Shown: piece after piece, positions 2,330 through 64,000 of the stretch
How positions within the stretch are numbered: the first letter of the stretch is position 1
How the letters are laid out: every line of letters begins with the position of its first letter
Made by a program: the position numbers and the translations under genes
Notes under the pieces: model-generated
The model's database searches: none
The model's input: only the letters and a program-made list of their open reading frames with translations
Told to the model about the DNA's origin: nothing
NCBI GenBank assembly: GCA_964490125.1
Contig: CAZBAJ010000001.1
Location: forward strand, 152,243 to 216,242
Reading direction: 5' to 3'
Length of the DNA stretch: 64,000 bases
From: an uncultured Candidatus Saccharibacteria bacterium
Lineage (GTDB): Bacteria > Patescibacteriota > WWE3 > UBA101185 > UBA10185

Positions 2330-2381
2330 ATAGCCCCGCTACGCCCGTACAAGTAAGTCAAAAGTTTCTTAAAGCGTCACT

Positions 2382-2582
2382 ATGGTAATTATACAAATAA
2401 TAATAAGCATAATGTTAATACTCTTAGTCCTAATTCAGTCCAAATCGGGCGGGCTTTCTGGCTCGGTGGCAAATTCCTTTGGTGCCTACCGTTCCCGTCG
2501 TGGAATAGAAAAAGGTATTTTTATTCTAACCATTGTTTGTGGTATCGTCTTTACCGTCAACAGCCTGTTTTTAATTATTTAA
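2382..2582 (+). CDS. secG: Preprotein translocase subunit SecG
   Basis: A 66-aa two-TM protein carrying the LLVLIQSKSGGLSG motif typical of SecG. Confidence 0.75.
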   Translation: MVIIQIIISIMLILLVLIQSKSGGLSGSVANSFGAYRSRRGIEKGIFILTIVCGIVFTVNSLFLII

Positions 2583-2583
2583 C

Positions 2584-3843
2584 ATGAGCCAAGCTACCAC
2601 AGCGCAAATAGACGGAGGAATTCCTTTAGTGGGCACGGTTAAAGCTTCCGGGAGTCGCGCGTTGGCGTTAAAACTTATTTACGCGTCCATTTTAAGTGGA
2701 GAGGAGTGTGTACTTTCCAATGTTCCTAAAGTCAAATATGTGTTGGACGACTTGGAGATTGCCCAAAATTTGGGCGTAACAGCTAGTTGGAGTGGCAATA
2801 CGCTAACCATAAATTCCGGGCAGTTAACCCAGTTTGCTCTTGAAGGCGACTTAGTTGCTAAAGTTGCTACCGCGCCTTTTTTAGTGCCAGCTTTAGTGCA
2901 TAAATTTGGCAAAGCGTCGTTACCAAAAAGTCAAAGAATAATGCAGTATGCCAAAATTTGGCAGGCGTTTGGCATGGAGGTATCCGAAGACTTTAATAAT
3001 TGTTTTGTGGAGGCGGTAAAACTAGTAAGTGGTGAGGTGGTTTTGCCCTACAAGTCGCGCGTTTTAACAGACATGGCAATTATTACCGCGCTGTTTATTT
3101 TGGGTGAAAGTGTGATTTTAAATCCCAGTACAGATGTAGAAACGGACGACCTGATTGACTATTGCAACAAACTTGGTGGGGAAGTTACACGGAGGGAGGA
3201 CGGTTCTATTGTAGTTACAGGTTGCGCGGTATTTAAAAGTGTTAATTTTACTTTGCCGTACGATCGGGAGGAAGCTGGATTTTTTATTGTAGCAACCTTG
3301 CTTACTAATGGAAATATTACTTTGGTGGACTTGGATAGAGCGCGCCTTCTGCCGTTTGTAAATTGGCTGTCAAAGGTTGGCGCAAGTTACGAATTTGTTG
3401 GTAGCGACATGCGGGTTTGGCACAATAGTGGGACGACCTTTGAGCCGTTTGACCTCACCGTTGCTCCGCACCCGGGCTTTATTACCGATCTTGCGCCTTT
3501 TGCCTGTCTGCTTGGCTGTTTTGCTGGTGGCGAAAGTAAAATAATCGAGCATGTCTTAGCCACAAATTTGGACTATCTTAAGGGTTTGAATCGGCTGGGG
3601 GCTAAAATAACCACCGAGCGGGTAGGCGAGTCACTTCAAATTAGTATCCCGGGTAATGTAAAGTTAAAACCCGGAAAAATGGTAATCTCTGACTTAAGGT
3701 ATGCTTTAATAAGTCTGCTTTACGCTTTAGTGGTGGAAGGTAAGCACGAGCTTGCGGACTACAACATGGCAGAGGACAGTTTTGAAGGTATTAGCCAACG
3801 CCTAAAATCCTTAGGTGCGGACATTAGTCTAAATGGGCTATAA
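2584..3843 (+). CDS. murA: UDP-N-acetylglucosamine 1-carboxyvinyltransferase-like (MurA/EPT family), divergent
   Basis: The enolpyruvyl transferase fold shows in GTVKASGSRALALKL, NVPKVKYV, VAPHPGFITDLAPFA (compare MurA TAPHPAFPTDMQAQF) and a MurA-like C-terminus. It lies in cell-wall gene context. The catalytic-loop region looks atypical. Confidence 0.65.
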   Translation: MSQATTAQIDGGIPLVGTVKASGSRALALKLIYASILSGEECVLSNVPKVKYVLDDLEIAQNLGVTASWSGNTLTINSGQLTQFALEGDLVAKVATAPFLVPALVHKFGKASLPKSQRIMQYAKIWQAFGMEVSEDFNNCFVEAVKLVSGEVVLPYKSRVLTDMAIITALFILGESVILNPSTDVETDDLIDYCNKLGGEVTRREDGSIVVTGCAVFKSVNFTLPYDREEAGFFIVATLLTNGNITLVDLDRARLLPFVNWLSKVGASYEFVGSDMRVWHNSGTTFEPFDLTVAPHPGFITDLAPFACLLGCFAGGESKIIEHVLATNLDYLKGLNRLGAKITTERVGESLQISIPGNVKLKPGKMVISDLRYALISLLYALVVEGKHELADYNMAEDSFEGISQRLKSLGADISLNGL

Positions 3844-31323: not shown

Positions 31324-31398
31324 TGGAGCGAGAGACGGGGATCGAACCCGCGACCTTCTCCTTGGGAAGGAGACATTCTACCACTGAACTACTCTCGC
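31324..31398 (-). tRNA. tRNA-Trp (anticodon CCA), CCA encoded
   Basis: Reverse-complement cloverleaf: acceptor gcgagag/ctctcgc, anticodon stem ctcct/aggag with loop tcCCAag. Confidence 0.9.
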
Positions 31399-51208: not shown

Positions 51209-53677
51209 ATGACTGCCCAAACTGCCCAAGAAGACAAATCCGTAGGTAAAGATGAAGTAGGTTTAACCGCCGCGCAAGCCCAAGAAAACATTGCAAAATA
51301 CGGCGCCAACATTTTAGAGTCACAAAAACTTTCCGCGGTAAAAATTTTAGGTCGACAATTTAAGGGCAACTACCTAGTCTACATTTTAATAATATGTACG
51401 GTTGCATCCTTTGCTTTAGGTGAGCGAGTAAGCTCCTTATACATTTTTGCCATGATTTTTGTAAGCGCTGGACTTGGTTTTTGGAACGAGTATTCTGCCC
51501 AAAAAACTGTAGAGCGACTGTTAAAACGCATCACGCCAAAAGTTACGGTTAGACGGGACGGGGTTGACCAAGAAATATTGTTGACTCAAATCGCGGTGGG
51601 CGACGCGGTGCTGTTTTCCACCGGTAGTGTAATTCCAGCGGATTTACAAATTCTCCAGGCGGAAAATTTAGAAGTTAATGAAAGTGTGTTGACTGGAGAA
51701 AGTGAGCCGGTAGTTAAAAAGCCTGGCGACGCTATGTACATGGGCACAAATGTAGAAAGTGGACACGGTTTGGGTTTGGTGACACAAGTAGGTAAACGCA
51801 CAAAATACGGAGAAATTGCCAAAAGCATTAACTTTTTAAAACCGGAGACTTCCTTCCAAATAGGTTTACATAGTTTTGGAAATATGCTGGTAAAAATAAT
51901 ATTTATTTTGGCTGGCGCAATCTTTTTAGTTAACTCCGCTTTAGGTAAGGATTTTCTTTCTAGCCTAATGTTTGCTTTAGCAATTGCGGTTGGTCTAACA
52001 CCGGAGCTTTTGCCAGTGATAGTGACTTTAAGCTTGTCGCACGGGGCAGGAAAGCTTGGCAAAAAGTATGTAGTAGTTAAACAGTTGGTTGCCGTAGAAA
52101 ATTTGGGTAATATGGACATTTTATGTTGCGACAAGACCGGAACGCTTACAGAAGGCAAAATAGAAGTAACTGATTATTTTGATGGCCAAGGTCAAAAGAG
52201 TCTAAAAGTGTTAGAAAAAGCGTTTTTAAGCGTGCCTAAAGGCGTCCAACAAAGCGCTAGTTTGGATAAAGCTATAGTTCAAATGGCGCAAAAAGCGGGA
52301 ATTCCTAAAAGCCTGGGGGTTGTATCTTATTTGGACAGTGAAGCCTTTGACTACAACAAAAAAGCCTCGTTCAACGTGGTTAAGTTTGAGAGCGTGACGC
52401 ATTTTTTGGTTAAGGGTGTGTTTGAAGATGTGGCTAGAATGTGCGACTTAAGTTTAGGTCAAGTAAATCTAAAGGATTTGCAAAAAAAGGTGGACATGTT
52501 GGGGATGCGGGGATTTAGGGTTATTGTTCTAGCTGGCAAAACACTAACGGCAAAAACATCCGGCGAATACACTTGGGATGACGCAAAAAACTTGCAGCTA
52601 CATGGCTTTTTAGTTTTTTCTGACGCGCCCAAAAAAGACGCTAAAAAAGCTCTAGACCGACTTGAGAAGCTAAATGTCGATTTAAAAGTGCTAACCGGTG
52701 ATAACGAAATTGTTGCCCTTAAAGTTTGCGCGGAGGTTGGACTTGCGGTAAAAGGTGTAATTCTAGGCGAGCGATTAGCAAAATTAACTGAAGCGGAGCT
52801 TGCAACCGCGGTACTTAACAACAATATTTTTGCCCGAGTAACGCCGGAAAACAAATTGGCAATCATTAAAGCTCTAAGAAATGCGGGTCATACTGTGGGT
52901 TTTTTGGGCGACGGTATAAACGACGCGCCCGCCCTGCATACCGCGGATGTTGGTATAAGCGTGAACACCGCATCTGATGTAGCAAAAGACTCCGCGTCTG
53001 TAGTGTTAATGCGGGGCGGGCTTGATGTGATTGCGGAAGGTGTTGTAGAAGGCAGGCGGATTTTTAACAACACCATAAAATATATTCTAATGGGAACAAG
53101 CTCTAATTTTGGTAATATGTTTTCCGCAGCTTTTGCGTCGTTTGTCTTGCCGTTTTTGCCCATGACGCCGGTTCAAATATTGCTAAACAATACTTTATAC
53201 GACTTTTCCCAGCTTACTATTCCGTCCGATAATGTAGACAAGGAATCGTTGTTAAAGCCCAGACACTGGGATATAAGCTTTATTAAAAAATACATGCTCT
53301 TTTTTGGACCTATTAGCTCGCTGTTTGATTTTATTACCTTTTTCTTTTTAATTTTGGTATTTAAGGCAACATCTGGGCAATTTCAAACAGGCTGGTTTTT
53401 AGAGTCGCTCTTAACCCAGACATTAGTAATTTTTGTCATTAGAACGGCTAAAACTCCGTTTTGGAAGTCCGCACCCGGTAAATTGTTGATAATGTCCAGT
53501 GTTGTCGTGCTTGGAGGCGCCTTGGCGATTGTCATCCTTCCGTTAAGGGCGTCGTTTGGGTTTGAATCGCTCCATTTGGGTTATGGCGCCTTCCTGCTAG
53601 TCGTCCTGCTAAGTTACATGCTGCTGGTGGACGGATTAAAGCGCCAATTTATAAAAAAGTTTAAGATTTGGAATTAG
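51209..53677 (+). CDS. P-type cation-transporting ATPase (Mg2+/Ca2+ type)
   Basis: CDKTGTLT, TGDN and GDGINDAPAL motifs and ~10 TM helices. Confidence 0.9.
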   Translation: MTAQTAQEDKSVGKDEVGLTAAQAQENIAKYGANILESQKLSAVKILGRQFKGNYLVYILIICTVASFALGERVSSLYIFAMIFVSAGLGFWNEYSAQKTVERLLKRITPKVTVRRDGVDQEILLTQIAVGDAVLFSTGSVIPADLQILQAENLEVNESVLTGESEPVVKKPGDAMYMGTNVESGHGLGLVTQVGKRTKYGEIAKSINFLKPETSFQIGLHSFGNMLVKIIFILAGAIFLVNSALGKDFLSSLMFALAIAVGLTPELLPVIVTLSLSHGAGKLGKKYVVVKQLVAVENLGNMDILCCDKTGTLTEGKIEVTDYFDGQGQKSLKVLEKAFLSVPKGVQQSASLDKAIVQMAQKAGIPKSLGVVSYLDSEAFDYNKKASFNVVKFESVTHFLVKGVFEDVARMCDLSLGQVNLKDLQKKVDMLGMRGFRVIVLAGKTLTAKTSGEYTWDDAKNLQLHGFLVFSDAPKKDAKKALDRLEKLNVDLKVLTGDNEIVALKVCAEVGLAVKGVILGERLAKLTEAELATAVLNNNIFARVTPENKLAIIKALRNAGHTVGFLGDGINDAPALHTADVGISVNTASDVAKDSASVVLMRGGLDVIAEGVVEGRRIFNNTIKYILMGTSSNFGNMFSAAFASFVLPFLPMTPVQILLNNTLYDFSQLTIPSDNVDKESLLKPRHWDISFIKKYMLFFGPISSLFDFITFFFLILVFKATSGQFQTGWFLESLLTQTLVIFVIRTAKTPFWKSAPGKLLIMSSVVVLGGALAIVILPLRASFGFESLHLGYGAFLLVVLLSYMLLVDGLKRQFIKKFKIWN

Positions 53678-53720
53678 TGTGCTAAAATCCTCCCACAATT
53701 AAATTAGAAGAAAGGTTTAT

Positions 53721-54386
53721 ATGACATTACCAAAAATTAACTTGCCCCAAAATGTAAAAAAGAATCTGCCAACACTTGTGTTTGTGCTAGTCATCCCGCT
53801 AGGGATTTTAGTGGGCTACTTTTTCTCTAATATAAAGGGATGGGTTGCCGGTGGCTATAAAGGGATTTTTATGCCTGTAAATAAGATGCTGTATGTGGCT
53901 AAGGTTGACGGAGTAGGTATTTCCAAGGGTGAGTGGGAAAAAATGCTTAAATCGCGGTACGGCAAGTCCGCAGCTAGGGATTTAATTGATATTTACATGG
54001 TCAATAACCAGCTTAAAAAGGCGGGTATTAAAGTTTCCGAGGACGAAATTAACGCGGAGATTGCGGAAATTGAAAAGCAATTAGCAGGGCAGAGTTTGGA
54101 GGAAGTTTTAGGTCAACAAGGCATGACGCTTACGGACTTTAGAAAAAATGTTTCTATGCAGGTTGGTATGAAGAAGCTGTTAAGCGACAAAGTAGTAATT
54201 GCGGACGAGGATGTGACTAAGTACATTGCGGATTACGCCAGTACGCTTACAGGCAAAACCGACGATGAGAAGTTTGCGGAAGCTAAAAAGATTTTGACGG
54301 ATCAGAAGTTGGGCGAAGAAATAAATAAGTGGTACAGCGACTTGCAGACCAAAGTGGTGGTGGAGAATTACCTAGAAGCTAAGTAA
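53721..54386 (+). CDS. SurA N-terminal domain-like membrane-anchored chaperone-like protein
   Basis: An N-terminal TM helix and a helical SurA_N-like composition. Weak. Confidence 0.45.
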   Translation: MTLPKINLPQNVKKNLPTLVFVLVIPLGILVGYFFSNIKGWVAGGYKGIFMPVNKMLYVAKVDGVGISKGEWEKMLKSRYGKSAARDLIDIYMVNNQLKKAGIKVSEDEINAEIAEIEKQLAGQSLEEVLGQQGMTLTDFRKNVSMQVGMKKLLSDKVVIADEDVTKYIADYASTLTGKTDDEKFAEAKKILTDQKLGEEINKWYSDLQTKVVVENYLEAK

Positions 54387-54435
54387 CCGGTAACTAATAA
54401 TTCTCATCTAATTGACGATTTAAAGACAAAAAAAA

Positions 54436-54462
54436 GAAGCCCTAACGGGCTTCTTTTTTTTT
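54436..54462. terminator. Bidirectional Rho-independent terminator (gaagccc-taac-gggcttc flanked by an A-run and a T9-run)
   Basis: A hairpin with flanking homopolymers, lying between convergent genes. Confidence 0.8.
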
Positions 54463-54533
54463 GAAGGCCTGACGGCATTCAGATTGATACCACTTTGGAT
54501 ATTTTAACCGATATATTTTGTAAAATCAACCAA

Positions 54534-55862
54534 TTAGAAATTGAACATTAAATAATTGGGTTTTAAAATTAGTAAAGCGCCGATCAACACCATCAATAAT
54601 CCCCCAATAAGGTTGGAATATTTGGCGTATTTTGTGGAAATTCCGGTGACTTCCAAAGTCCGCATAGAAATAAAAAAGACTATAAAGTCGTCCAACATAA
54701 AAAAGACAATGTACAAGGCTATGTAGAGGTAGTATTGGATTGCTGATAAGCCGTTTAGTGTCAAGATTTGCGTAAAGATTGCTGGAAACCCCGCGGAACA
54801 AAAGAGTTCCACCAAATTAACCGCAAAAGCCAGCCCAGCGATTCCCAAAAGGGCAGTCAGCAAACTTTTGTCGTAAGTAATTTTCTTAAGTTTATCAAAG
54901 GTTTTTTTACGGTTTTCGTCCTCTGTAACCACGCAACCCATTTTATGCTGGAGATACTTGTTTAGGCTAAAAGCACCTGCCAGAATAGCAAATCCGGCAA
55001 TAAGGAGTCGTACCCAGACAATAAAACCCACAAACAACAGTATATTTAGCCACGCGGACATAAAAAGAAAATAAACCAAACCGGAAGCCAGCAAAAAAGT
55101 TATTCCCAAGAGCCATCTGCGGTTTTTGTTTGGCAGATTTACAAGCAGGCTAATTAAAAAGAGCAAAACCCACATAGCGCAGGGGTTAAAACCATCCAGT
55201 GTACCTATAACCACGGCAATAAGCGGTAAGGAGAGCGTTGTTAGGTTAATTTTGCCGACAATTGGGAGCACGACTTCTTTTGGTAAAGAAATCGGCGCAT
55301 TTTTCCACGGATCCGGCTTTGGGTTAGCGGGTTCGGGATTGGGCTTTTGTGTAGGTATAAGATCGTTTGGATTAGATGTGACCGATGTGGGATGAGGCGC
55401 GGGACTGGGTTCTGTTTTAGGCGTTGGGGCGGGATTTATTTCTGCTATAACATCTTTACAATCGTTAATCTGACAATAATCAATGTATTCATGGATTTGG
55501 GCTCCTGTGGTGTCGGCTGTGTAATAACCGCCAATATGATTCTCTCCCACGACGGTAAACGGTACGCCTTTAATGTCAGCATTAAGCTTTTCTCCTACTT
55601 TTTTTAAGAGTTCGCGGTTTTTAGCGTTGCCCCAAACCTCAAACTTGTTAATTGCTAGGTTTGGGTAATCCTTCTCAAGTTTGTCTAGAAACTTCTCTTC
55701 CTCCGCGCAGTGTGGGCATCCGTTACCCCAAAAAAAGTACAGGTTGACTTTGTTAGAAGTGCTAGTTTCTGCCCTTACATTAACAGAAAGTACCGTAAAT
55801 ACAGTAAAAATCACTGCCATGAGCACTTTGTAGTAAGGTGGACAAAACTTTCGGAAATTCAT
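54534..55862 (-). CDS. Thioredoxin-like domain fused to a CcdA/DsbD-type transmembrane thiol-disulfide transporter
   Basis: Signal peptide, then WGNGCPHC, a Pro-rich linker and a CcdA-like TM domain (DGFNPCAMWVL). Confidence 0.8.
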   Translation of the reverse strand: MNFRKFCPPYYKVLMAVIFTVFTVLSVNVRAETSTSNKVNLYFFWGNGCPHCAEEEKFLDKLEKDYPNLAINKFEVWGNAKNRELLKKVGEKLNADIKGVPFTVVGENHIGGYYTADTTGAQIHEYIDYCQINDCKDVIAEINPAPTPKTEPSPAPHPTSVTSNPNDLIPTQKPNPEPANPKPDPWKNAPISLPKEVVLPIVGKINLTTLSLPLIAVVIGTLDGFNPCAMWVLLFLISLLVNLPNKNRRWLLGITFLLASGLVYFLFMSAWLNILLFVGFIVWVRLLIAGFAILAGAFSLNKYLQHKMGCVVTEDENRKKTFDKLKKITYDKSLLTALLGIAGLAFAVNLVELFCSAGFPAIFTQILTLNGLSAIQYYLYIALYIVFFMLDDFIVFFISMRTLEVTGISTKYAKYSNLIGGLLMVLIGALLILKPNYLMFNF

Positions 55863-55877
55863 TAAAAGATTATAACA

Positions 55878-56658
55878 TTACCCTCGCTTTTGATTGAATA
55901 AAAAATCAAGGGCTTTAGTGATTGAATTGTGATCAATGGACTTGCCTAAAGTAACCGAATCCAGTTGTTTTGGGAAATGTTCTAAACTCGTAGTAAGAAT
56001 CTGATACTTTACTTTTTCTTTGGTAAGGCAGGATTCAATATAGCTATGATTTATCCTATTATCGTTTGGGTTTAAAAGAATTAAATAAGGTACTTTATGA
56101 AACTTCGGTCGGCTGTGGTCGGTTAATATCAGCTCCAATACTGCAAAGAATGTTTTTGGAGAAATTTCTTTGAATATCGCATCCCGTGTTGTTTGAGAGT
56201 GTTTTGCGAAAAAACCAAATTTTATTACTAATTTCTCGCGCAAAACATACTTTTCTATATGAAGTAGTCGTACAATTTTACATAACCCAAGAATTCCAAA
56301 TTGCTTGAATTGATTTATGCTCAAGGATTCTTTGTTTAAATAAGGAAATATGCCGATAATTCCGGAGCATTTTTTAGCAGACTCACAATCGTTAACTACT
56401 TTAAACCCAAAGCTCGCCCCCCCCCATGTAGAAATTTTCTAGTTTAAGCTTGGTTACCACGGCATCAACATAACAACTGTAATCTTTTAGCGAAGCCGGT
56501 TCTATGGCAGGAATGTTTTTTATAAAACCCGGAAGGTCTACCGGAATTACTTGAAAAAATAAATTCAAATAACCTATAAGACCATTAAGCGCTTTAGAGT
56601 TTGTAGGAAATGAGTGAACGAATATCAGATTTGCTTTAGTCATTTTTATGTTTCTCAA
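55878..56658 (-). pseudogene. Alpha/beta hydrolase split by a frameshift in a C9/G9 homopolymer (56417-56425)
   Basis: The 85-aa ORF (56401..56658; LIFVHSFP) and the 148-aa ORF (55878..56324) are in frames that differ by one. The downstream frame is open through the tract. With 8 G the join reads YMGGASFGF, restoring a GxSxG nucleophile elbow. Confidence 0.6.
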
Positions 56659-56905
56659 TCAAAGATACGATCTCTTGTTTAGAAGGCTCGCCGGAGAGTC
56701 GTGTGATTTCTTTGTCGTCCTTGTCCAAAAAGATAAAAACCGGTAAATTTCTACCTACATTCCACTTTTTCACCTCGTCAGGTGAATCGTCGTACTCAAA
56801 ATAGCGGGTTTCCAGCCAAGGATTTTCCGCCTCAATTTCCTTCCATCGAGGTCGCATAACTAAACAACCCGGACACCATACTGCACCAAACTTTAAAACC
56901 TTCAT
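56636..56905 (-). CDS. trxA: Thioredoxin
   Basis: WCPGC active site. 89 aa. Confidence 0.85.
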   Translation of the reverse strand: MKVLKFGAVWCPGCLVMRPRWKEIEAENPWLETRYFEYDDSPDEVKKWNVGRNLPVFIFLDKDDKEITRLSGEPSKQEIVSLIEKHKND

Positions 56906-56998
56906 AAACTCCTTTCTAATTACTTTAATCTTTGTGACTACTTAAACAAATCGAATACTAGCTTTCCGATGATTATAGTAACACAAAAATTTCGTCGA

Positions 56999-57928
56999 CT
57001 AAAGCAAAGTTAGCCATGCTAAACCCAGCACGATTCTGTAAATTCCAAAAGGTAAAAAGCTGTGTTTTTGGACAAAGTTAATAAACAGTTTGACGGCAAA
57101 TAGCGCGGTGATAAAGGATCCTACAAACCCTATAATTAGTAGGACGACTTCCTGGCTGGAAAAATTAAAGTTTGACTTATAAAGATCCAGACTTGTGGCG
57201 GCAAGCATTGTGGGAATTGCTAGAAAAAAGGAAAACTTGATAGCTTCTGTTTTATTTAACCCCATTAGCAGTCCGCCAAAAATGCTTGCCGCCGATCTTG
57301 AAACTCCTGGAACTACGGCAAGACTTTGGAACACGCCGATAACCAAAAGCCTCGGTACGGATAAGTTTTTAAAAAGCTCTTTGGCTGGTGTTATTGTTGG
57401 GGGAATAAGTCTGGGATTACTATACTTTTTGGCGTGATTGCCATTGTATATATTCGGTATACCGTTTTCGTAATGCGAAGTCGTTGGTACATGTGGGTCG
57501 GACAACCCGATGTTTTGGTTGGTAGCGTTTGTTGTATATTTATCCGATCGATTGGTTTTATCCACCAACTTGTCAATAACCGTAAAAACCAAACCGCCGA
57601 GAATTAACGCTAGAGTAGTAACAAGTCCGTTGCCAATAAGTCGCTCCTTAATAAAGTCGTACAGAAAAAAGCCAATAATTGCGGACGGCAAAAAAGCCAG
57701 AATTGTTTTGTACCAGAGCTGGGTGTTGCGGGAAAGCTCTTTAAAATACAGCGCGACAACGGCAAGGATTGCTCCAAGCTGGATAATGACCTCAAAGCTT
57801 TTAACAAAATCGGTTTGGGAAACGCCTAATATTTGTGAAGTTAAGATTAGGTGCGCGGTGGAGGAAATCGGCAGGAATTCGGTAATTCCCTCGACCACAG
57901 AAAGTACAATAGATTCAATGAAGTTCAT
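56999..57928 (-). CDS. uppP: Undecaprenyl-diphosphatase UppP/BacA with a ~65-aa hydrophilic insertion
   Basis: VEGITEFLPISSTAHLIL and the C-terminal SRSAASI box are present. An insertion NRSDKYTTNATNQNIG...HAKKYSNPRL is present. Confidence 0.85.
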   Translation of the reverse strand: MNFIESIVLSVVEGITEFLPISSTAHLILTSQILGVSQTDFVKSFEVIIQLGAILAVVALYFKELSRNTQLWYKTILAFLPSAIIGFFLYDFIKERLIGNGLVTTLALILGGLVFTVIDKLVDKTNRSDKYTTNATNQNIGLSDPHVPTTSHYENGIPNIYNGNHAKKYSNPRLIPPTITPAKELFKNLSVPRLLVIGVFQSLAVVPGVSRSAASIFGGLLMGLNKTEAIKFSFFLAIPTMLAATSLDLYKSNFNFSSQEVVLLIIGFVGSFITALFAVKLFINFVQKHSFLPFGIYRIVLGLAWLTLL

Positions 57929-57931
57929 AGT

Positions 57932-58360
57932 TTAAAATAAAAAATCTAGATACTTGTCAACCATATTTATATTGATTTCTTTAAACCTATCTATAAATCC
58001 GTGTTGACCTAGTAATGGTGAAGACTGTTTTTCCACAAAGAAAACAACCGTATCATTGATTACAATGTCGCCAAAAAACAAGTCACACCCATGACCCCAG
58101 GCATGGGCTTCGGTTCCTCCAGCACCGGTTATTGGCAGATACATGCCTTTTTTTATTTTATCTATAGAAAACCCCAAAAATACTTGGGCATACTCAAAGG
58201 GAAAGACATTTATAGCTGAACCTGTGTCAAAATAGCAACTTATCGCACGACCCATCATGTGATTGCACAGCAAGCCGACTTTTATCCACGGAGCGTAGTG
58301 AATAATTTGACCTTCCTGATTGGGTAGTAGGAATGTTGTTTCGGTTAAACCTACCTTCAT
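57932..58360 (-). CDS. Retropepsin-like (clan AA) aspartic protease
   Basis: The DTGS catalytic motif (YFDTGSAINVFP) is present. ~140 aa, single domain. Confidence 0.7.
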   Translation of the reverse strand: MKVGLTETTFLLPNQEGQIIHYAPWIKVGLLCNHMMGRAISCYFDTGSAINVFPFEYAQVFLGFSIDKIKKGMYLPITGAGGTEAHAWGHGCDLFFGDIVINDTVVFFVEKQSSPLLGQHGFIDRFKEININMVDKYLDFLF

Positions 58361-58563
58361 AGAATTATAGATGGAACATAAACGGAATTTAGTGGCATGA
58401 CCTTCTCCACAGTGTAGTCGTTATTTAGTGTCCGCATTTTTTCTGCTAGTACTGCTAAACTCTTGTCTGCTTCAAGCACAGCCCCTGTAACAGGATCCCT
58501 AGCCAGCCACATATTTTGATATTTAAGCTTAAAGTCTATTAACGCCTTGTTTTTTGTTTTCAT
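58357..58563 (-). CDS. Small protein (68 aa), DUF5678-like, overlapping the protease gene start
   Basis: MWLARDPVTGAVLEADKSLAVLAEKM resembles the WVAI...G.V pattern I recall for DUF5678. A 4-nt overlap with the downstream protease gene. Confidence 0.35.
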   Translation of the reverse strand: MKTKNKALIDFKLKYQNMWLARDPVTGAVLEADKSLAVLAEKMRTLNNDYTVEKVMPLNSVYVPSIIL

Positions 58564-58567
58564 AAAG

Positions 58568-58822
58568 CTATTCTACCACACTCGCATCGTTATAAACTTC
58601 ATCCGATTGACTTGACTGCAAAGGCTCTTCCTGCGGAGTTGGTGTAGGTAATACATTTTCCACGACAGTTTGCTTTTTTACCGGTCTAAGTCTATTTAAA
58701 ATTCCACTGTTGTAAACAAAAACCAAGACATAGACCAAAACAACTAAAAATGCTCCTCTAAATATTAAGTCCTTAAGATACTGGTCGTCTTGCCTTTTTT
58801 CCATGTAAAAATTAAACCACAA
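58568..58822 (-). CDS. Small single-TM membrane protein; hypothetical
   Basis: One hydrophobic helix (GAFLVVLVYVLVFVY). Confidence 0.35.
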   Translation of the reverse strand: MWFNFYMEKRQDDQYLKDLIFRGAFLVVLVYVLVFVYNSGILNRLRPVKKQTVVENVLPTPTPQEEPLQSSQSDEVYNDASVVE

Positions 58823-58852
58823 AAACCCACTTTTAGGTAGTATACTTGGCGC

Positions 58853-59842
58853 ATGCAGATGAACGACTTGATTTGGGGCAAGGTAACTATCGACGATAAG
58901 GATGTTCTAGCGATTTTAAAGCATCCGGCTATGGACAGAGTAAAAAGGATTTGGATTTCTTCATACGGTTACCTGTTTAATTTGCAACGGAGTTCTACGC
59001 GGTTTGAGCATTGTTTAGGAGTTTACTTGTTATTGAGACATTTTAAGGCATCCACAAAAGAGCAACTTGCCGGGCTGATCCACGACGTTTCTCATACAGC
59101 GCTTTCGCACCTTTCTACCTACGCAATTCAGGGAAAATATACGGGCGAGGAGTTTCACGAGCTGATGCAGAAAAAGTTTATTGACGATTCGGGCTTAGCT
59201 GATTTGTTTGTTAACTTAGGCTACAATGCGGACGACTTATTACACACCGATAAATTTACGCTATTGGAAAATAACCTGCCGGATATTTGTGCTGACCGTA
59301 TTGATTACGCCCTTCGCGACGGTTTACATTTGCAAATACTTTCCCGTCAACAAGCGGATCAAATTATCAATGGGTTGGTTATAAAAAACGGCGAGTTTGT
59401 ATTTTCCAACGGTCAGTCAGCATTTTTATACTCATTTAACTTTTATTTACTAAATTTAATGTTTTACGGTTCCCCCGCGGAGGCTCATTTTAACAACGAC
59501 TTTGGAGCTTTGGTTAATTATGCCATGAAGACGGGAGTATTAAAGGAAAAAGATTGGTTTAGTGACGATGTTTATTTGATTGGAAAGCTTAAAAAGTCCA
59601 AAAATGCCAAAATCCAAAAGTGGCTAGGTAAATACAATCAAAAACTAGTAGTTTATGAGGACAGCGCGCATTCGGACAAGGTTTTTTCTAAAAAGATTCG
59701 GGTAGTGGATCCAAAAGTTATTGTGGGCGGCAAAATAAGTCGATTAAGTGAGATTAATGCCGTTTATTGCAAATTAATTACCGATTACCAAAAAAACCAT
59801 AAGGAACATACATTACCCGTCAAGGTTAATTATAAAGATTGA
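58853..59842 (+). CDS. HD domain phosphohydrolase
   Basis: H...HD motifs (FEHCLGVYLL; LIHDVSHTALSH). Confidence 0.75.
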   Translation: MQMNDLIWGKVTIDDKDVLAILKHPAMDRVKRIWISSYGYLFNLQRSSTRFEHCLGVYLLLRHFKASTKEQLAGLIHDVSHTALSHLSTYAIQGKYTGEEFHELMQKKFIDDSGLADLFVNLGYNADDLLHTDKFTLLENNLPDICADRIDYALRDGLHLQILSRQQADQIINGLVIKNGEFVFSNGQSAFLYSFNFYLLNLMFYGSPAEAHFNNDFGALVNYAMKTGVLKEKDWFSDDVYLIGKLKKSKNAKIQKWLGKYNQKLVVYEDSAHSDKVFSKKIRVVDPKVIVGGKISRLSEINAVYCKLITDYQKNHKEHTLPVKVNYKD

Positions 59843-61055
59843 AGTCGGTCCAAACTTCGTCCCGTAAAGCAGGACCTGCGGTGACTTTTATCTCTGTTCC
59901 ATCCACAGTCATTACCCCAAAAATAGCCGACTTCACATCGACATTTGAGAAAGCTTTATCGTCCCCATATCTTCCACCTGTATTAAAGGCTAAAAGCCTG
60001 GAAATATCGTATGGGGTTGGAATCTCTCTTTGTGTAAGTACCCTCATTAAATGTAAGGCTCGGTCAGCTAAGGCCTGTCTCTGCAAATTCCAAGCCAATG
60101 CCTCTTCATTCGCATTTTCATTACCTTCTAAAACCACCTTACCGTTTTGAGTATAAATATTTGTGCTTATCATGCGTGTGCCAGCTTTGGATTCGAGTTC
60201 TATTTTATCTACGGTGTCGAGTGCGAATTCTACTTTTCCTGCTTCTATGCCTACTTCCCCACGCCTTGCATAATTGACTACATAACCATCTGCAAACGGG
60301 GCTAAAGCTCTCATAATATCGTATGGATGCATGCCGTTCCCTATATAAGAAGCAGTCCACACAGCGGTATTTGCCAAAATTGCAGGTTCCTGATCCTCTT
60401 TTGTATGTTGCATATCGACACATAGAAACAAATCCTTTCCGAAGGTAAATCCAGCACCAGGTAGTAAGTCCGGGTATACAAAAGAGAAGTATTCGCTACC
60501 CCTAACCCCCTTTATCTTCACTATTCTCGTTTTGTCCACACGAGATCCGGGTTCATCCTCAACATCTTCTTCGTTATGCCAAAATATCACCTCTCCGCTT
60601 TCACCTCTAAGCAGACCGCTGATACATCCCACATTATCGTTTTGCAAAGATAAGGCGATAAGTAGATTAAGTTTGTCTCGTTCGTAAATGTCGCCCAAAA
60701 GTTCTGAGATTTGTCGATGTTCTAAGGAGCTAAAGTCTATTTCATCGGACCAGCTTTTAATTGCTTTCAAATATGCCTCCAGCCCCCCTTTAATTAATGG
60801 GTTCTCTTCATGCTTGATTCTATCCTCGATCACAGACAGACACTTGTCCGCAAATTCTAAATCTACCCTGAATACCGATGGATCATCCTCATCTATTAAT
60901 GTATCAACGGATTTTCTAGCCGCGTCCCGTACTTGTCGACCCAATTCTCTGTAGCTTTCCTCCAACGACAGTTCCGAAAGATCGACCAACTCAAGACTCC
61001 CAAGTCGCTCTTTTTCTATCTTTAGTCCTTCTAAATTAACCATATTTGCACGCAC
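59826..61055 (-). CDS. Hypothetical protein, possibly a C45/Ntn-hydrolase-like self-processing enzyme (Gly-Cys at ~140)
   Basis: DNVGCISGLL could be an Ntn autoprocessing site. Assignment tentative. Confidence 0.3.
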   Translation of the reverse strand: MRANMVNLEGLKIEKERLGSLELVDLSELSLEESYRELGRQVRDAARKSVDTLIDEDDPSVFRVDLEFADKCLSVIEDRIKHEENPLIKGGLEAYLKAIKSWSDEIDFSSLEHRQISELLGDIYERDKLNLLIALSLQNDNVGCISGLLRGESGEVIFWHNEEDVEDEPGSRVDKTRIVKIKGVRGSEYFSFVYPDLLPGAGFTFGKDLFLCVDMQHTKEDQEPAILANTAVWTASYIGNGMHPYDIMRALAPFADGYVVNYARRGEVGIEAGKVEFALDTVDKIELESKAGTRMISTNIYTQNGKVVLEGNENANEEALAWNLQRQALADRALHLMRVLTQREIPTPYDISRLLAFNTGGRYGDDKAFSNVDVKSAIFGVMTVDGTEIKVTAGPALRDEVWTDFNLYN

Positions 61056-61107
61056 ATTTTATCACGGGGGTCTTGATCCCTGATCCATTTCGTATTATAT
61101 TCGGTTT

Positions 61108-61365
61108 ATGATTCAGCAAGTCCGCATGCCGGTGTCGGTTAATTTAATTTACGACCATAAGAAAAACCGCGTCTCACCCGTCGCACTAAAATGGGATGGC
61201 GAGGTTAAAAAAGTTAAAACTGTGGATTTGCATCATTCCTACAGAACTGGTCGCACCCTATACCATGTGTTTTCTGTGTCAACCGAAGGCGCGTTTTTTA
61301 AGCTGGTGCTAAATACCGACAATCTTTTTTGGGAAGTTGAGGAGGTTTCGTGCGATGGAGTTTAA
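61108..61365 (+). CDS. Small hypothetical protein (85 aa) overlapping the dinB start by 29 nt
   Basis: The ORF is translationally coupled to dinB. No known motif. Confidence 0.4.
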   Translation: MIQQVRMPVSVNLIYDHKKNRVSPVALKWDGEVKKVKTVDLHHSYRTGRTLYHVFSVSTEGAFFKLVLNTDNLFWEVEEVSCDGV

Positions 61366-62578
61366 CCCAAAACCTTCCACCACTATGCATATTGATCTAA
61401 ATTCCTGCTTTGCCACTATTGAACAGCAAGCTAACCGGAATTTGCGTGGCAGACCGATTGCGGTGGCTTCCTACAACAGTCCCGGTGGGTGTATTTTGGC
61501 ACCTTCTGTTGAGGCCAAAAAGTTGGGTATTAAAACCGGTATGCGGGTTAAGGACGGAAAGCTGTTGTGTCCTGGGCTTATTGTTATGGAGCCGGATCCG
61601 CCCAAGTATCGATTTGTCCATCTAAAACTTAAAGAATTGGTGGGCAGGTATACGCCAAAAGCGGTGCCTAAGTCTATTGACGAGTTTGTGTTGGACTTGG
61701 AAGGCTGTCCCGCGTTTAAGATGGGCATGCGGGAAGTTGCCCAAAAAATTAAAGTTGACATTAAACAGGAAGTTGGCGACTTTATTACGGTTTCCATAGG
61801 CATTGCGCCAAACAGGTTTTTGGCAAAGTTGGCATCCGGTTTGCATAAGCCGGACGGATTGGACGAAATTAACAAAGCTAATTTTTTAGAAATTTATGGG
61901 CGACTTTGTCTGCAGGACTTGTGCGGTATTGCCCTAAATAATGCAGTGCGACTTGGAAACACGGGAATTTACACCGTTTTGGATTTTTACCGCGCGGATG
62001 TGGCGGTTTTAAAACAGGCTTTTCATTCCATTGGCGGTTACTACTGGTATTTGCGACTCCGGGGCTGGGAAATTGATGATGTAGAGTTTAGTCGTAAAAG
62101 TTTTGGTAATTCTTATGCCTTGCCCAAGCCGTTAGCTAGTCCGGAGGAGCTTTCACCCATACTTTCTAAATTGGTAGAAAAAATGTCTTTTAGACTGCGG
62201 ACTGCGGGATTTAAAGCCAGAGGCGTTGGTTTGTTTATAGATTATCGTGGGGGAAATTTTTGGCACAAAACCAGGTTAGCCGGGGAGTTTTTGTATGAGT
62301 CGGGCGACTTCTTTAGGTCCGCATATAAACTTTTGTGTCAGTCGCCTTATAAAGAACCGGTTGCGGTTTTGGCGGTATGTTGTTTTGACTTGGAAAAAGC
62401 CACGATTATTCAGCAGGACATGTTTGGCGCGCAGGAGAAAAAGTTTAATTTGGCAAATTCTGTGGATGTCATAAATTCCAAGTGGGGCAGTTTTGTTTTA
62501 GGCCCGGCAAGCCTGTTGCTGTCCAAGGAAAATGTTAGAGACCGTATTGCCTTTGGCGGGGTTAGGGATTTGTTATAA
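61337..62578 (+). CDS. dinB: Y-family DNA polymerase IV (DinB)
   Basis: HIDLNSCFATIEQ, SIDEFVLDL (catalytic D,E), ITVSIGIAPNRFLAKLAS. Confidence 0.85.
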   Translation: MRRFRAMEFNPKPSTTMHIDLNSCFATIEQQANRNLRGRPIAVASYNSPGGCILAPSVEAKKLGIKTGMRVKDGKLLCPGLIVMEPDPPKYRFVHLKLKELVGRYTPKAVPKSIDEFVLDLEGCPAFKMGMREVAQKIKVDIKQEVGDFITVSIGIAPNRFLAKLASGLHKPDGLDEINKANFLEIYGRLCLQDLCGIALNNAVRLGNTGIYTVLDFYRADVAVLKQAFHSIGGYYWYLRLRGWEIDDVEFSRKSFGNSYALPKPLASPEELSPILSKLVEKMSFRLRTAGFKARGVGLFIDYRGGNFWHKTRLAGEFLYESGDFFRSAYKLLCQSPYKEPVAVLAVCCFDLEKATIIQQDMFGAQEKKFNLANSVDVINSKWGSFVLGPASLLLSKENVRDRIAFGGVRDLL

Positions 62579-62585
62579 TACCGAC

Positions 62586-63264
62586 ATGGGGGATGAAGCA
62601 AAAGTAAAAAATAATGAGGGCGAGCTTCTGGCTATCGAAAGGTACAGACAAATAGAGAGGGGTTTGGTTCACGCCCCGATGTTGAAAAAAGAATGGTCTG
62701 AAGAAGATATGAGCGCAGTTTTGTCTACGGTTGGAGACCCAGAAGTTGTTAGAGCAGGTTTGGAGCATGTTCGTGGGCGGGAACTTTGCCATGTATTGAG
62801 ATTGCTGCGGGGGGGGGGAGATAGAAAGAGAGTTTGCTATTGCGTATTTGAGATATAGTCCAGAAGCTATTTTGCCTGATTCTAATACTGCAACAAGCGA
62901 ACGCAGAGATGTAAGATTGGTGGTGGGAAGCGAGGGAACGGACACTACCGCTTTCTGGACATTCGCACCTTATTTATTTGACGAGTTTAAACAACAAGAG
63001 ATCGACGAAATTATATGTATGAGACTGTTGTACAGATGGGTTGCGGATGGAAGATCTGTTTCACGCGCAAGTTCCCAATACGATCAAGACAGCCATCGCT
63101 ACATACACCTTAAGGGCTTAGAATGGCTAAACAGGTTTGGTCTTAATAGTAACATTTACGCGTTGGATCCATACGACCCGGAACATGTTTCACACGAGTT
63201 TACTAGAGAAGAGGCTACGCGCATTGCTCCTATAATTATAACGGAGTTTGGGGATAAAATTTAG
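62586..63264 (+). pseudogene. Hypothetical protein gene split by a frameshift in a G10 homopolymer (62809-62818); moderately GC-richer than its surroundings
   Basis: ORF 62532..62858 (frame 0) and ORF 62848..63264 (frame 1). Frame 1 is open from 62800 through the G tract. A +/-1 change in the tract fuses them (...LRLLRGGG-EIEREFAIAYLRYSPEA...). Confidence 0.45.
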
Positions 63265-64000
63265 GTTAAAAAACGATCAATAGTAGACAAAATTATGCAA
63301 CCGGTATTTGTTTAAGCATAAGAATAAAATATGCCCCAAAGGGTACATATTTAAACGAACTAATAGTCGTATTTCTCCGATTTAAGCCTGTAGTAACAAC
63401 CAATACTATATGACAAATATCCGTTTGTGCGCTTGATAAAATACGCGAACTATTTCCGTCCTGTAATAACAACAAAATCCACATATCCTTAAAAAATAAG
63501 TGAACTATGTCAGGAGTATAGTTTGAAGGCTGTTAATACAACCTAAAAACGCTGACACATAAATACACACTCGAATACACAAACAAAGATCTAAATACTA
63601 AGTCGCGCTAGATAAACTAACAGATACTCACATAAACACACAGATACATCAAAAATCTAAATAAATACATATCGGAATATACTTAAGCACCCCAATACCA
63701 ATACGACTCACTGTCACCAAGATTAGACAATAATACCCAAAGAATTCAAGTCCGCCACCGTGACTGTAATTACAGCCACCGTAGCCTACGATATTTACGA
63801 ACTAGGGTAGTTCACTAATTATTCTAGAAAACTAGGTATTTGCTTTAACAACGGCTTAAAAATAGTTCGCAAATAAATATAACTGAACAATGTCACAAAT
63901 GTCATACAGTTAACGCCGTAGTAAAAGCCTTAAATCTATAAAAAGCAGTTTATTGTTCGTTTAAATATAGGGTCTGTGGACTAATAAAAAAAACGGCTGG

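Follow-up and report, generated by a model that had tools for sequence, protein, structure and literature searches.

The stretch of DNA analysed here (hereafter the window) comprises 64,000 nucleotides (nt) of contig CAZBAJ010000001.1, from an uncultured Candidatus Saccharibacteria bacterium, and has an overall GC content of 42%. A run of ten G's (G10) lies close to its right end, at 62809-62818 on the forward strand, where the original prediction had placed it; read from position 62800, the sequence is gattgctgc-GGGGGGGGGG-agatagaaag. The run is situated at a frameshift between two open reading frames (ORFs), the layout of which is as predicted: the ORF at 62532-62858 is in frame 0, the ORF at 62848-63264 is in frame 1, and frame 1 is open from 62800 onwards, after a TGA at 62797-62799. 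As detailed below, the two ORFs are parts of one conserved gene encoding a protein of 225 amino acids (aa), and the tenth G may be a real, slipped allele of this gene. The elements concerned are as follows.

62809..62818, forward strand: G10 homopolymer; the in-frame length is G9, which gives the codons CGG GGG GGG GAG (R-G-G-E), codons 75-78 of the ORF
62586..62858, forward strand: N-terminal part of the gene, frame 0; residues 1-77 are correct and are followed by 13 out-of-frame codons and a stop
62800..63264, forward strand: C-terminal part of the gene, frame 1; contains the conserved core, with the WTFAPY motif, W151 and H203

One gene interrupted at a poly-G tract

The effect of tract length was assessed by rebuilding the region in silico with 8 to 12 G's and comparing the resulting frames. 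Tracts of nine and twelve G's join both halves, giving products of 225 and 226 aa, respectively, while G8, G10 and G11 lead to a stop shortly after the tract. The proposal that a change of one base in either direction fuses the two ORFs is therefore correct for the loss of a G but not for the gain of one, and the gain of two also fuses them. The fused protein, put at roughly 225 aa, is exactly 225 aa long with G9 and the start codon ATG 62586; it is this start (MGDE), and not 62532, that the homologues indicate.

A homology search with the fused product, as the original prediction had advised, returned three full-length proteins of 223-224 aa, 70-76% identical to the repaired product and colinear with it from end to end, in which the junction reads ...LRLLRGGEIER(A/E)FAIAYL.... 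Moreover, a contig from the Logan assembly of run SRR8925812 (L004), which aligns with window 58840-63418 at 99.87% identity over 4579 bp, carries G9 and encodes a protein 100% identical to the repaired 225-aa product. The full-length homologues and this G9 contig with its fused protein bear out the idea that the ORFs are two halves of one gene: the segment 62586-63264 is a single gene for a 225-aa protein, and its in-frame state is G9. In the source record, the gene is split into two coding sequences (CDSs) on a 240,555-bp NCBI contig, P0038 (103 aa) and P0004 (130 aa); the 90% cluster of P0004 includes a 238-aa protein encoded on L004 that is identical to the repaired product. The orthologues show a ratio of nonsynonymous to synonymous substitution rates (dN/dS) of 0.05-0.2, which indicates purifying selection on the intact gene.

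The 225-aa product has no Pfam, NCBIfam, PHROG, PADLOC, PDB sequence or fold match. A first scan of genome contigs revealed no relative of the gene, and a profile search of 1.84 billion representative proteins found only 110 clusters, mostly of 200-240 aa, the named members of which belong to Candidatus Uhrbacteria and "Patescibacteria group bacterium". The WTFAPY motif is invariant in the family, which also has W151 and H203. A model obtained with AlphaFold2 from 21 sequences is confident and all-helical (predicted local distance difference test score, pLDDT, 84; predicted template modelling score, pTM, 0.85); in this model, the tract codons map to a loop between helices 64-75 and 78-89, and this loop is variable over the wider family. 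The present work defines a small uncharacterised family, helical as modelled, with an invariant WTFAPY motif. Distant members occur in unrelated genomic contexts. In a set comprising L020 4095-5513, L011 4953-6398, L018 3819-5459 and P0079, some members form tandem duplications within one protein, and others are fused to an N-terminal histidine-phosphatase-like domain or to a C-terminal kinase-like domain that scores below threshold.

The GC content of the locus had also been described as higher than that of neighbouring genes, which proved not to be so. The value for the 225-aa gene is 0.443, as compared with 0.422 ± 0.02 for the long ORFs of the window and 0.450 for the adjacent polymerase gene, and 21% of 680-nt segments equal or exceed it. 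Neither raised GC nor a foreign origin is supported, the gene being within the ordinary range of the window.

A second tract and the sister strain

G/C runs of seven or more bases are found just twice in the window, as the G10 run and as a C9 run at 56417-56425; runs of G7-G9 and C7-C8 are absent across its 64 kb. The numbers expected by chance in 64 kb from base composition are 0.02 for G runs of at least ten and 0.017 for C runs of at least nine. In 447 kb of related Patescibacteria loci, the G/C runs of at least nine bases are the counterparts of the present tract in relatives, and nothing else. The C9 run had been predicted to sit, like the G10 run, precisely at a frameshift within a gene, in this case a hydrolase gene. 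This is indeed what is found, since G8 repairs the hydrolase.

56417..56425, reverse strand: second long G/C tract, C9 as read on the forward strand and G9 on the coding strand, with G8 as the in-frame length
55878..56658, reverse strand: split alpha/beta-hydrolase gene; 254 aa when repaired, with the tract at the GGASFGF nucleophile elbow

The hydrolase tract lies inside ...FYMGGG on the minus strand, where it encodes the Gly-Gly that immediately precedes the catalytic GxSxG elbow (GGASFGF). A G8 tract leaves the ORF open for 254 aa, elbow included. Fifteen homologues were found, mostly 251-260 aa long and 30-38% identical; the five that were aligned span both halves and have GG(V/I)SFGF at the point of the tract. 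In L059, a second contig of the same Logan run as L004, the gene is called intact at 2368-3132, with 254 aa and G8.

The two Logan contigs allow the window to be compared with a near-identical genome over a total of 10.8 kb. L004 differs from the window by five single-nucleotide polymorphisms (SNPs), which flank the tract on both sides, and by one gap, the tract itself. L059 aligns with window 52635-58840 (6.2 kb) at 99.34% identity; the two differ by 40 SNPs and, at the hydrolase tract, by the one gap in the alignment. Alongside 45 SNPs there are therefore just two indels, one in each G/C tract, and in both cases the window has one base more: G10 against G9 in the 225-aa gene, and G9 against G8 in the hydrolase gene. 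These are length differences between two assemblies. A T9 run (54454-54462) and an intergenic A8 run (54428-54435) have the same length in the window and in L059; the two assemblies thus differ by indels at their G/C tracts only, and general indel noise is absent. The Logan contigs come from a distinct strain, as indicated by the 45 SNPs in 10.8 kb and by a structural difference at 58840.

At that position, both contigs (L004 1-85; L059 1-170) lose similarity to the window at exactly the same nucleotide, which points to an insertion or rearrangement, specific to the strain, on the upstream side of the HD-domain gene described below. Nucleotides 1-28 of L004 (extending to about 45) match window 63307-63334, which follows closely on the 225-aa gene, in inverted orientation and imperfectly. 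In the sister strain, inverted repeats therefore flank a 4.5-kb block that runs from the HD-domain gene to the 225-aa gene. A 964-nt contig from another Logan run (L060, SRR11845628) is 100% identical to window 56636-57599, including the positions that differ in the SRR8925812 strain, and the exact strain of the window is therefore present in SRR11845628.

A slipped allele or a consensus error

I lean towards the reading that the poly-G tract is hypermutable and that G10 is a real 'off' allele produced there by strand slippage. The codons for R-G-G-E specify the inter-helix loop and at the same time constitute a G9 run, to which, in the window, an extra G would most probably have been added by slipped-strand mispairing during DNA synthesis. 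The frame would then be shifted past residue 77 and the stop reached 13 codons on, ahead of the conserved WTFAPY core, which would yield a null allele. As the tract would stay slippery, a -1 event would restore the gene, and the whole would act as a simple-sequence-repeat on/off switch. I infer from this that G10 is the true majority sequence of the population, produced by slippage and revertible. The passage of the hydrolase tract from G8 to G9 would be a second case in the same genome. Several observations speak for this reading besides the comparison with the sister strain: the purifying selection on the gene, the position of the tract in a variable loop, the lack of other G/C runs of nine or more bases in related loci, the tendency of DinB-type polymerases to slip in homo-oligonucleotide runs (see below), and the scarcity of GGG, which with 14% is less used in the window than any other Gly codon and occurs doubled in 1 of 80 Gly-Gly pairs.

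Two features of contingency loci are present: a G/C tract longer than the approximately seven bases at which such tracts become mutable lies inside an ORF, and its repeat number toggles the gene between in-frame and out-of-frame states. In relatives, the site of the tract has the following forms.

L004: G9; intact frame
L002: C-G9-AG; intact frame
L003: CGA-G7-AG (G-A-G7; GAGGGGGGG); intact frame
L001: CAGGGAGGGAAG (tract part AGGGAGGGA); intact frame
L008: C-G7-AG; frameshifted

Several points count against a real switchable allele, and the first of them come from these relatives. The tract is uninterrupted in the lineage of the window and in L002 but broken in L003 and L001, that is, in two of the four lineages, and so has not been maintained over evolutionary time. 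The codons CGG GGG GGG are common to the window and L002, with p ~0.13 given that four-fold sites are 51% identical; the idea that selection keeps the tract, based on this retention of three synonymous G's, was dropped since it is not significant. The G7 of L008 (Ga0172375_10161205, 1-1803) was rejected as a clean natural length variant because it sits exactly at the breakpoint of a mosaic: compared with L002, there are ~70 differences (mismatches and gap columns) in the first ~820 nt, a divergence of ~7-9%, and 1 difference in ~980 nt beyond the tract, with zero in the remainder of the 225-aa gene. L008 may be a chimeric assembly or a recombinant, to judge from this pattern. The G7 of L011 was not used either, as it belongs to a different Gly-Gly pair (residues 57-59) and not to the homologous loop. 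Finally, no phenotype can be proposed for a switch in a gene of uncharacterised function. A contingency locus in the strict sense is one in which the tract is kept by selection and switches reversibly at high frequency. With p ~0.13 and a tract broken in two of four lineages, there is no evidence of selection maintaining it, and a strict contingency locus is not demonstrated.

The other points against a real allele are at the same time the case for a G/C-specific consensus error, which I regard as possible but less probable. The true lengths would then be G9 here and G8 in the hydrolase gene, one G having been over-called in each long tract by sequencing, by stutter in the polymerase chain reaction, or during polishing or bubble resolution; both genes would be intact and there would be no biology to explain. 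Both tracts are exactly one base longer than in a 99.3-99.9%-identical strain, which has the in-frame lengths, and both are out of frame, the pattern expected of a G-specific over-call. The only two G/C runs of at least seven bases in the window are both 'wrong' in this sense. A second assembly with G10 was not found, and in a collection of 15 billion proteins the truncated products come from the source record only.

Conversely, such an error must be specific to G/C runs of nine or more bases, since the ~40 A/T runs of 7-8 bases that sit within unbroken long ORFs of the window are intact, and T9 and A8 agree with the sister strain. For the same reasons, a platform-wide homopolymer error mode is excluded: indels at homopolymers of all four bases, rising in frequency with length, are not what is seen. 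Of the two alternatives put forward in the original prediction, a systematic homopolymer error is thus conceivable for G/C runs only, and contingency loci in the strict sense are not demonstrated. Furthermore, the sister contigs belong to a distinct strain, so that a real difference in tract length is equally possible. Another Logan contig (L029, SRR17021131; 1280-1300), whose polymerase is 86% identical to that of the window, has what looks like a real frameshift in this segment of the gene: four codons past the tract site, an (AG)5 dinucleotide repeat is longer by one AG unit, which shifts the frame by +2. From these sequences, frameshifts appear to recur in the purine-rich low-complexity stretch encoding RGGEIEREF, and to do so in assemblies made by different pipelines. 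Short-read consensus usually gets tracts of G8-G10 right, while long-read errors would also strike A/T runs; a real variant is therefore weighed somewhat above an artefact.

A third explanation, programmed recoding, accepts G10 as true and has the full-length protein made by +1/-2 slippage of ribosome-bound tRNA-Gly on GGG GGG GGG G, or by slippage of RNA polymerase on the G run, so that the gene would be expressed at a set low level. The run of G codons permits perfect re-pairing of tRNA-Gly(CCC), and a gene for such a tRNA is present in the window at 31324-31398. The G run also resembles a Shine-Dalgarno sequence, and in prfB such a sequence promotes a +1 frameshift; transcription, too, is known to slip on long homopolymers, although mostly on A/T runs. 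Programmed frameshifts, however, are conserved in orthologues, whereas the intact orthologues here are all in frame, including that of the 99.87%-identical strain, and frame 0 after the tract contains no slow or stop codon for 13 codons. Compared as DNA, L001-L004 read in frame at this site, the suspect mosaic L008 being the one exception; a frameshift at the slippery site is therefore not conserved, and recoding is unlikely. Lastly, that the halves are two real genes of 103 and 130 aa, as the two CDSs of the source record would have it, is ruled out by orthologues that are all single 223-224-aa proteins colinear over the junction, the more so as the final 13 residues of the first CDS are out of frame and devoid of homology, and the second CDS has neither an ATG nor a Shine-Dalgarno sequence and begins within a helix of the model.

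The polymerase cassette and known slippage systems

The 225-aa gene is preceded by two other genes on the same strand.

61108..61365, forward strand: 85-aa ORF, first gene of the cassette; precedes the polymerase gene in 28 of 29 Patescibacteria genome loci
61355..62578, forward strand: gene for a Y-family (DinB/Pol IV-like) DNA polymerase (Pfam IMS PF00817, 9.6e-36; IMS_C PF11799, 4.3e-12)

The polymerase has both the IMS catalytic domain and the IMS_C little-finger domain of the Y family. The NCBIfam models for DNA polymerase IV match it with E-values down to 1e-57 but with scores below their equivalog cut-offs, and its assignment to a subfamily is therefore tentative. The start giving 407 aa is the one used by the gene caller in L004. 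The polymerase stop codon lies 7 nt ahead of the start of the 225-aa gene, so the two genes share an operon. No Shine-Dalgarno sequence precedes the 225-aa gene, whose translation is therefore probably coupled to that of the polymerase gene. The order 85-aa ORF, polymerase, 225-aa gene is identical in L001 and L002. The 85-aa product, which has no Pfam, NCBIfam, PHROG or PADLOC match, is found with the polymerase at 28 of 29 Patescibacteria loci (L030-L058; WWE3, Woesebacteria, Shapirobacteria, Gottesmanbacteria and others), with 30-55% identity. No member of the 225-aa family is encoded within 4 kb of the pair at those loci, which suggests that the 225-aa gene is a clade-specific addition to a cassette of two conserved genes. 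In its layout, this pair is reminiscent of Y-family polymerases with small YolD-like or UmuD-like partners.

The sequences on either side of the cassette were also inspected. Upstream, between the BacA/UppP region and the cassette, window 58853-61055 contains an HD-domain gene (329 aa) and a convergent gene of 409 aa that has no family match. The syntenic locus L001 has neither gene, and this part of the genome accordingly varies between relatives. Downstream of the 225-aa gene, at 63265-64000, lies an AT-rich, strand-skewed, non-coding block of 0.55-0.7 kb, with counterparts in relatives (L002 3219-3799; L003 1098-1659; L001 8677-9450) that are bounded by inverted repeats of 16-32 nt and dense with GTTCACTTAT / ATAAGTGAAC motifs. 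The copy in the window scores somewhat better when aligned in reverse, a hint that the segment may be invertible, but an inversion is unproven, as internal palindromes let both orientations align. An Rfam search of the window gave five tRNAs only, with no match in the downstream block.

The position of the polymerase beside the tract is suggestive. The DinB-type polymerases DinB1 and DinB2 of mycobacteria make +/-1 frameshifts in homo-oligonucleotide runs (PMC9346131, PMC10159617), and the window encodes a DinB-like polymerase 230 nt ahead of a G run in which a -1 slip would reopen the gene. The link is one of position only, however, and the polymerase pair occurs at 28 of 29 other loci without the 225-aa gene. 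A further extension would be that the two G tracts are real contingency switches, the one in the 225-aa gene being flipped by the polymerase encoded upstream, such that induction of the operon would raise the frequency of the -1 slip that turns on the third gene. I consider this proposal improbable.

Patescibacteria are reduced, probably episymbiotic bacteria, and little is known of how they generate population diversity. No report of repeat-mediated phase variation in Patescibacteria or Saccharibacteria was found among the top literature matches. Saccharibacteria are reported in one study to lack MutS and MutL (PMC8406219). Were the G10 and G9 lengths genuine, they would give a first indication that genes of this group are switched on and off by way of repeats, and a switch beside a DinB-like polymerase would suggest a link of error-prone synthesis to gene switching that can be tested. 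Should they instead be errors, the long G/C runs of this assembly are unreliable and single genes should be annotated, one for a conserved hypothetical protein of 225 aa and one for an alpha/beta hydrolase of 254 aa. In either case, the helical WTFAPY family and the cassette of 85-aa ORF and Y-family polymerase are defined in Patescibacteria.

The locus can be set against several known systems. As in the poly-G/C contingency genes of Campylobacter jejuni, Helicobacter and Neisseria (PMC8355987, PMC5084427, PMC8437040), an intragenic G/C tract of 8-10 bases sets the frame and the on and off states differ by one base; the segment studied here has two such tracts, whose length differs between near-identical strains. 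In those species, by contrast, the tracts are numerous, conserved at the locus and shown to switch at a high rate, mostly in genes for surface structures or restriction-modification, whereas the present ones number two in 64 kb, are known from assemblies alone and encode a cytoplasmic-looking helical protein and a hydrolase, the tract in the former being broken in half of the lineages. Sporadic coding homopolymers with transient, reversible loss-of-function alleles, as in glpK and in tracts across the genome of Mycobacterium tuberculosis (PMC10334774; bioRxiv 10.1101/717272), offer another likeness, but there the evidence consists of thousands of isolates and experimental reversion, and here of two assemblies of an uncultured Patescibacteria bacterium. 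Homopolymer errors in draft and metagenome-assembled genomes likewise produce a one-base difference that breaks a conserved gene, which the annotator turns into two CDSs; a platform-wide error of this type would also strike A/T runs, none of which is affected here. Overall, features of this kind are known, and the locus represents an ordinary frameshift of the slippage type, affecting one conserved hypothetical gene. Tracts of the same kind, likewise seen by comparing many closely related genomes, are the subject of the survey 'Homopolymeric tracts represent a general regulatory mechanism in prokaryotes' (PMC2831843).

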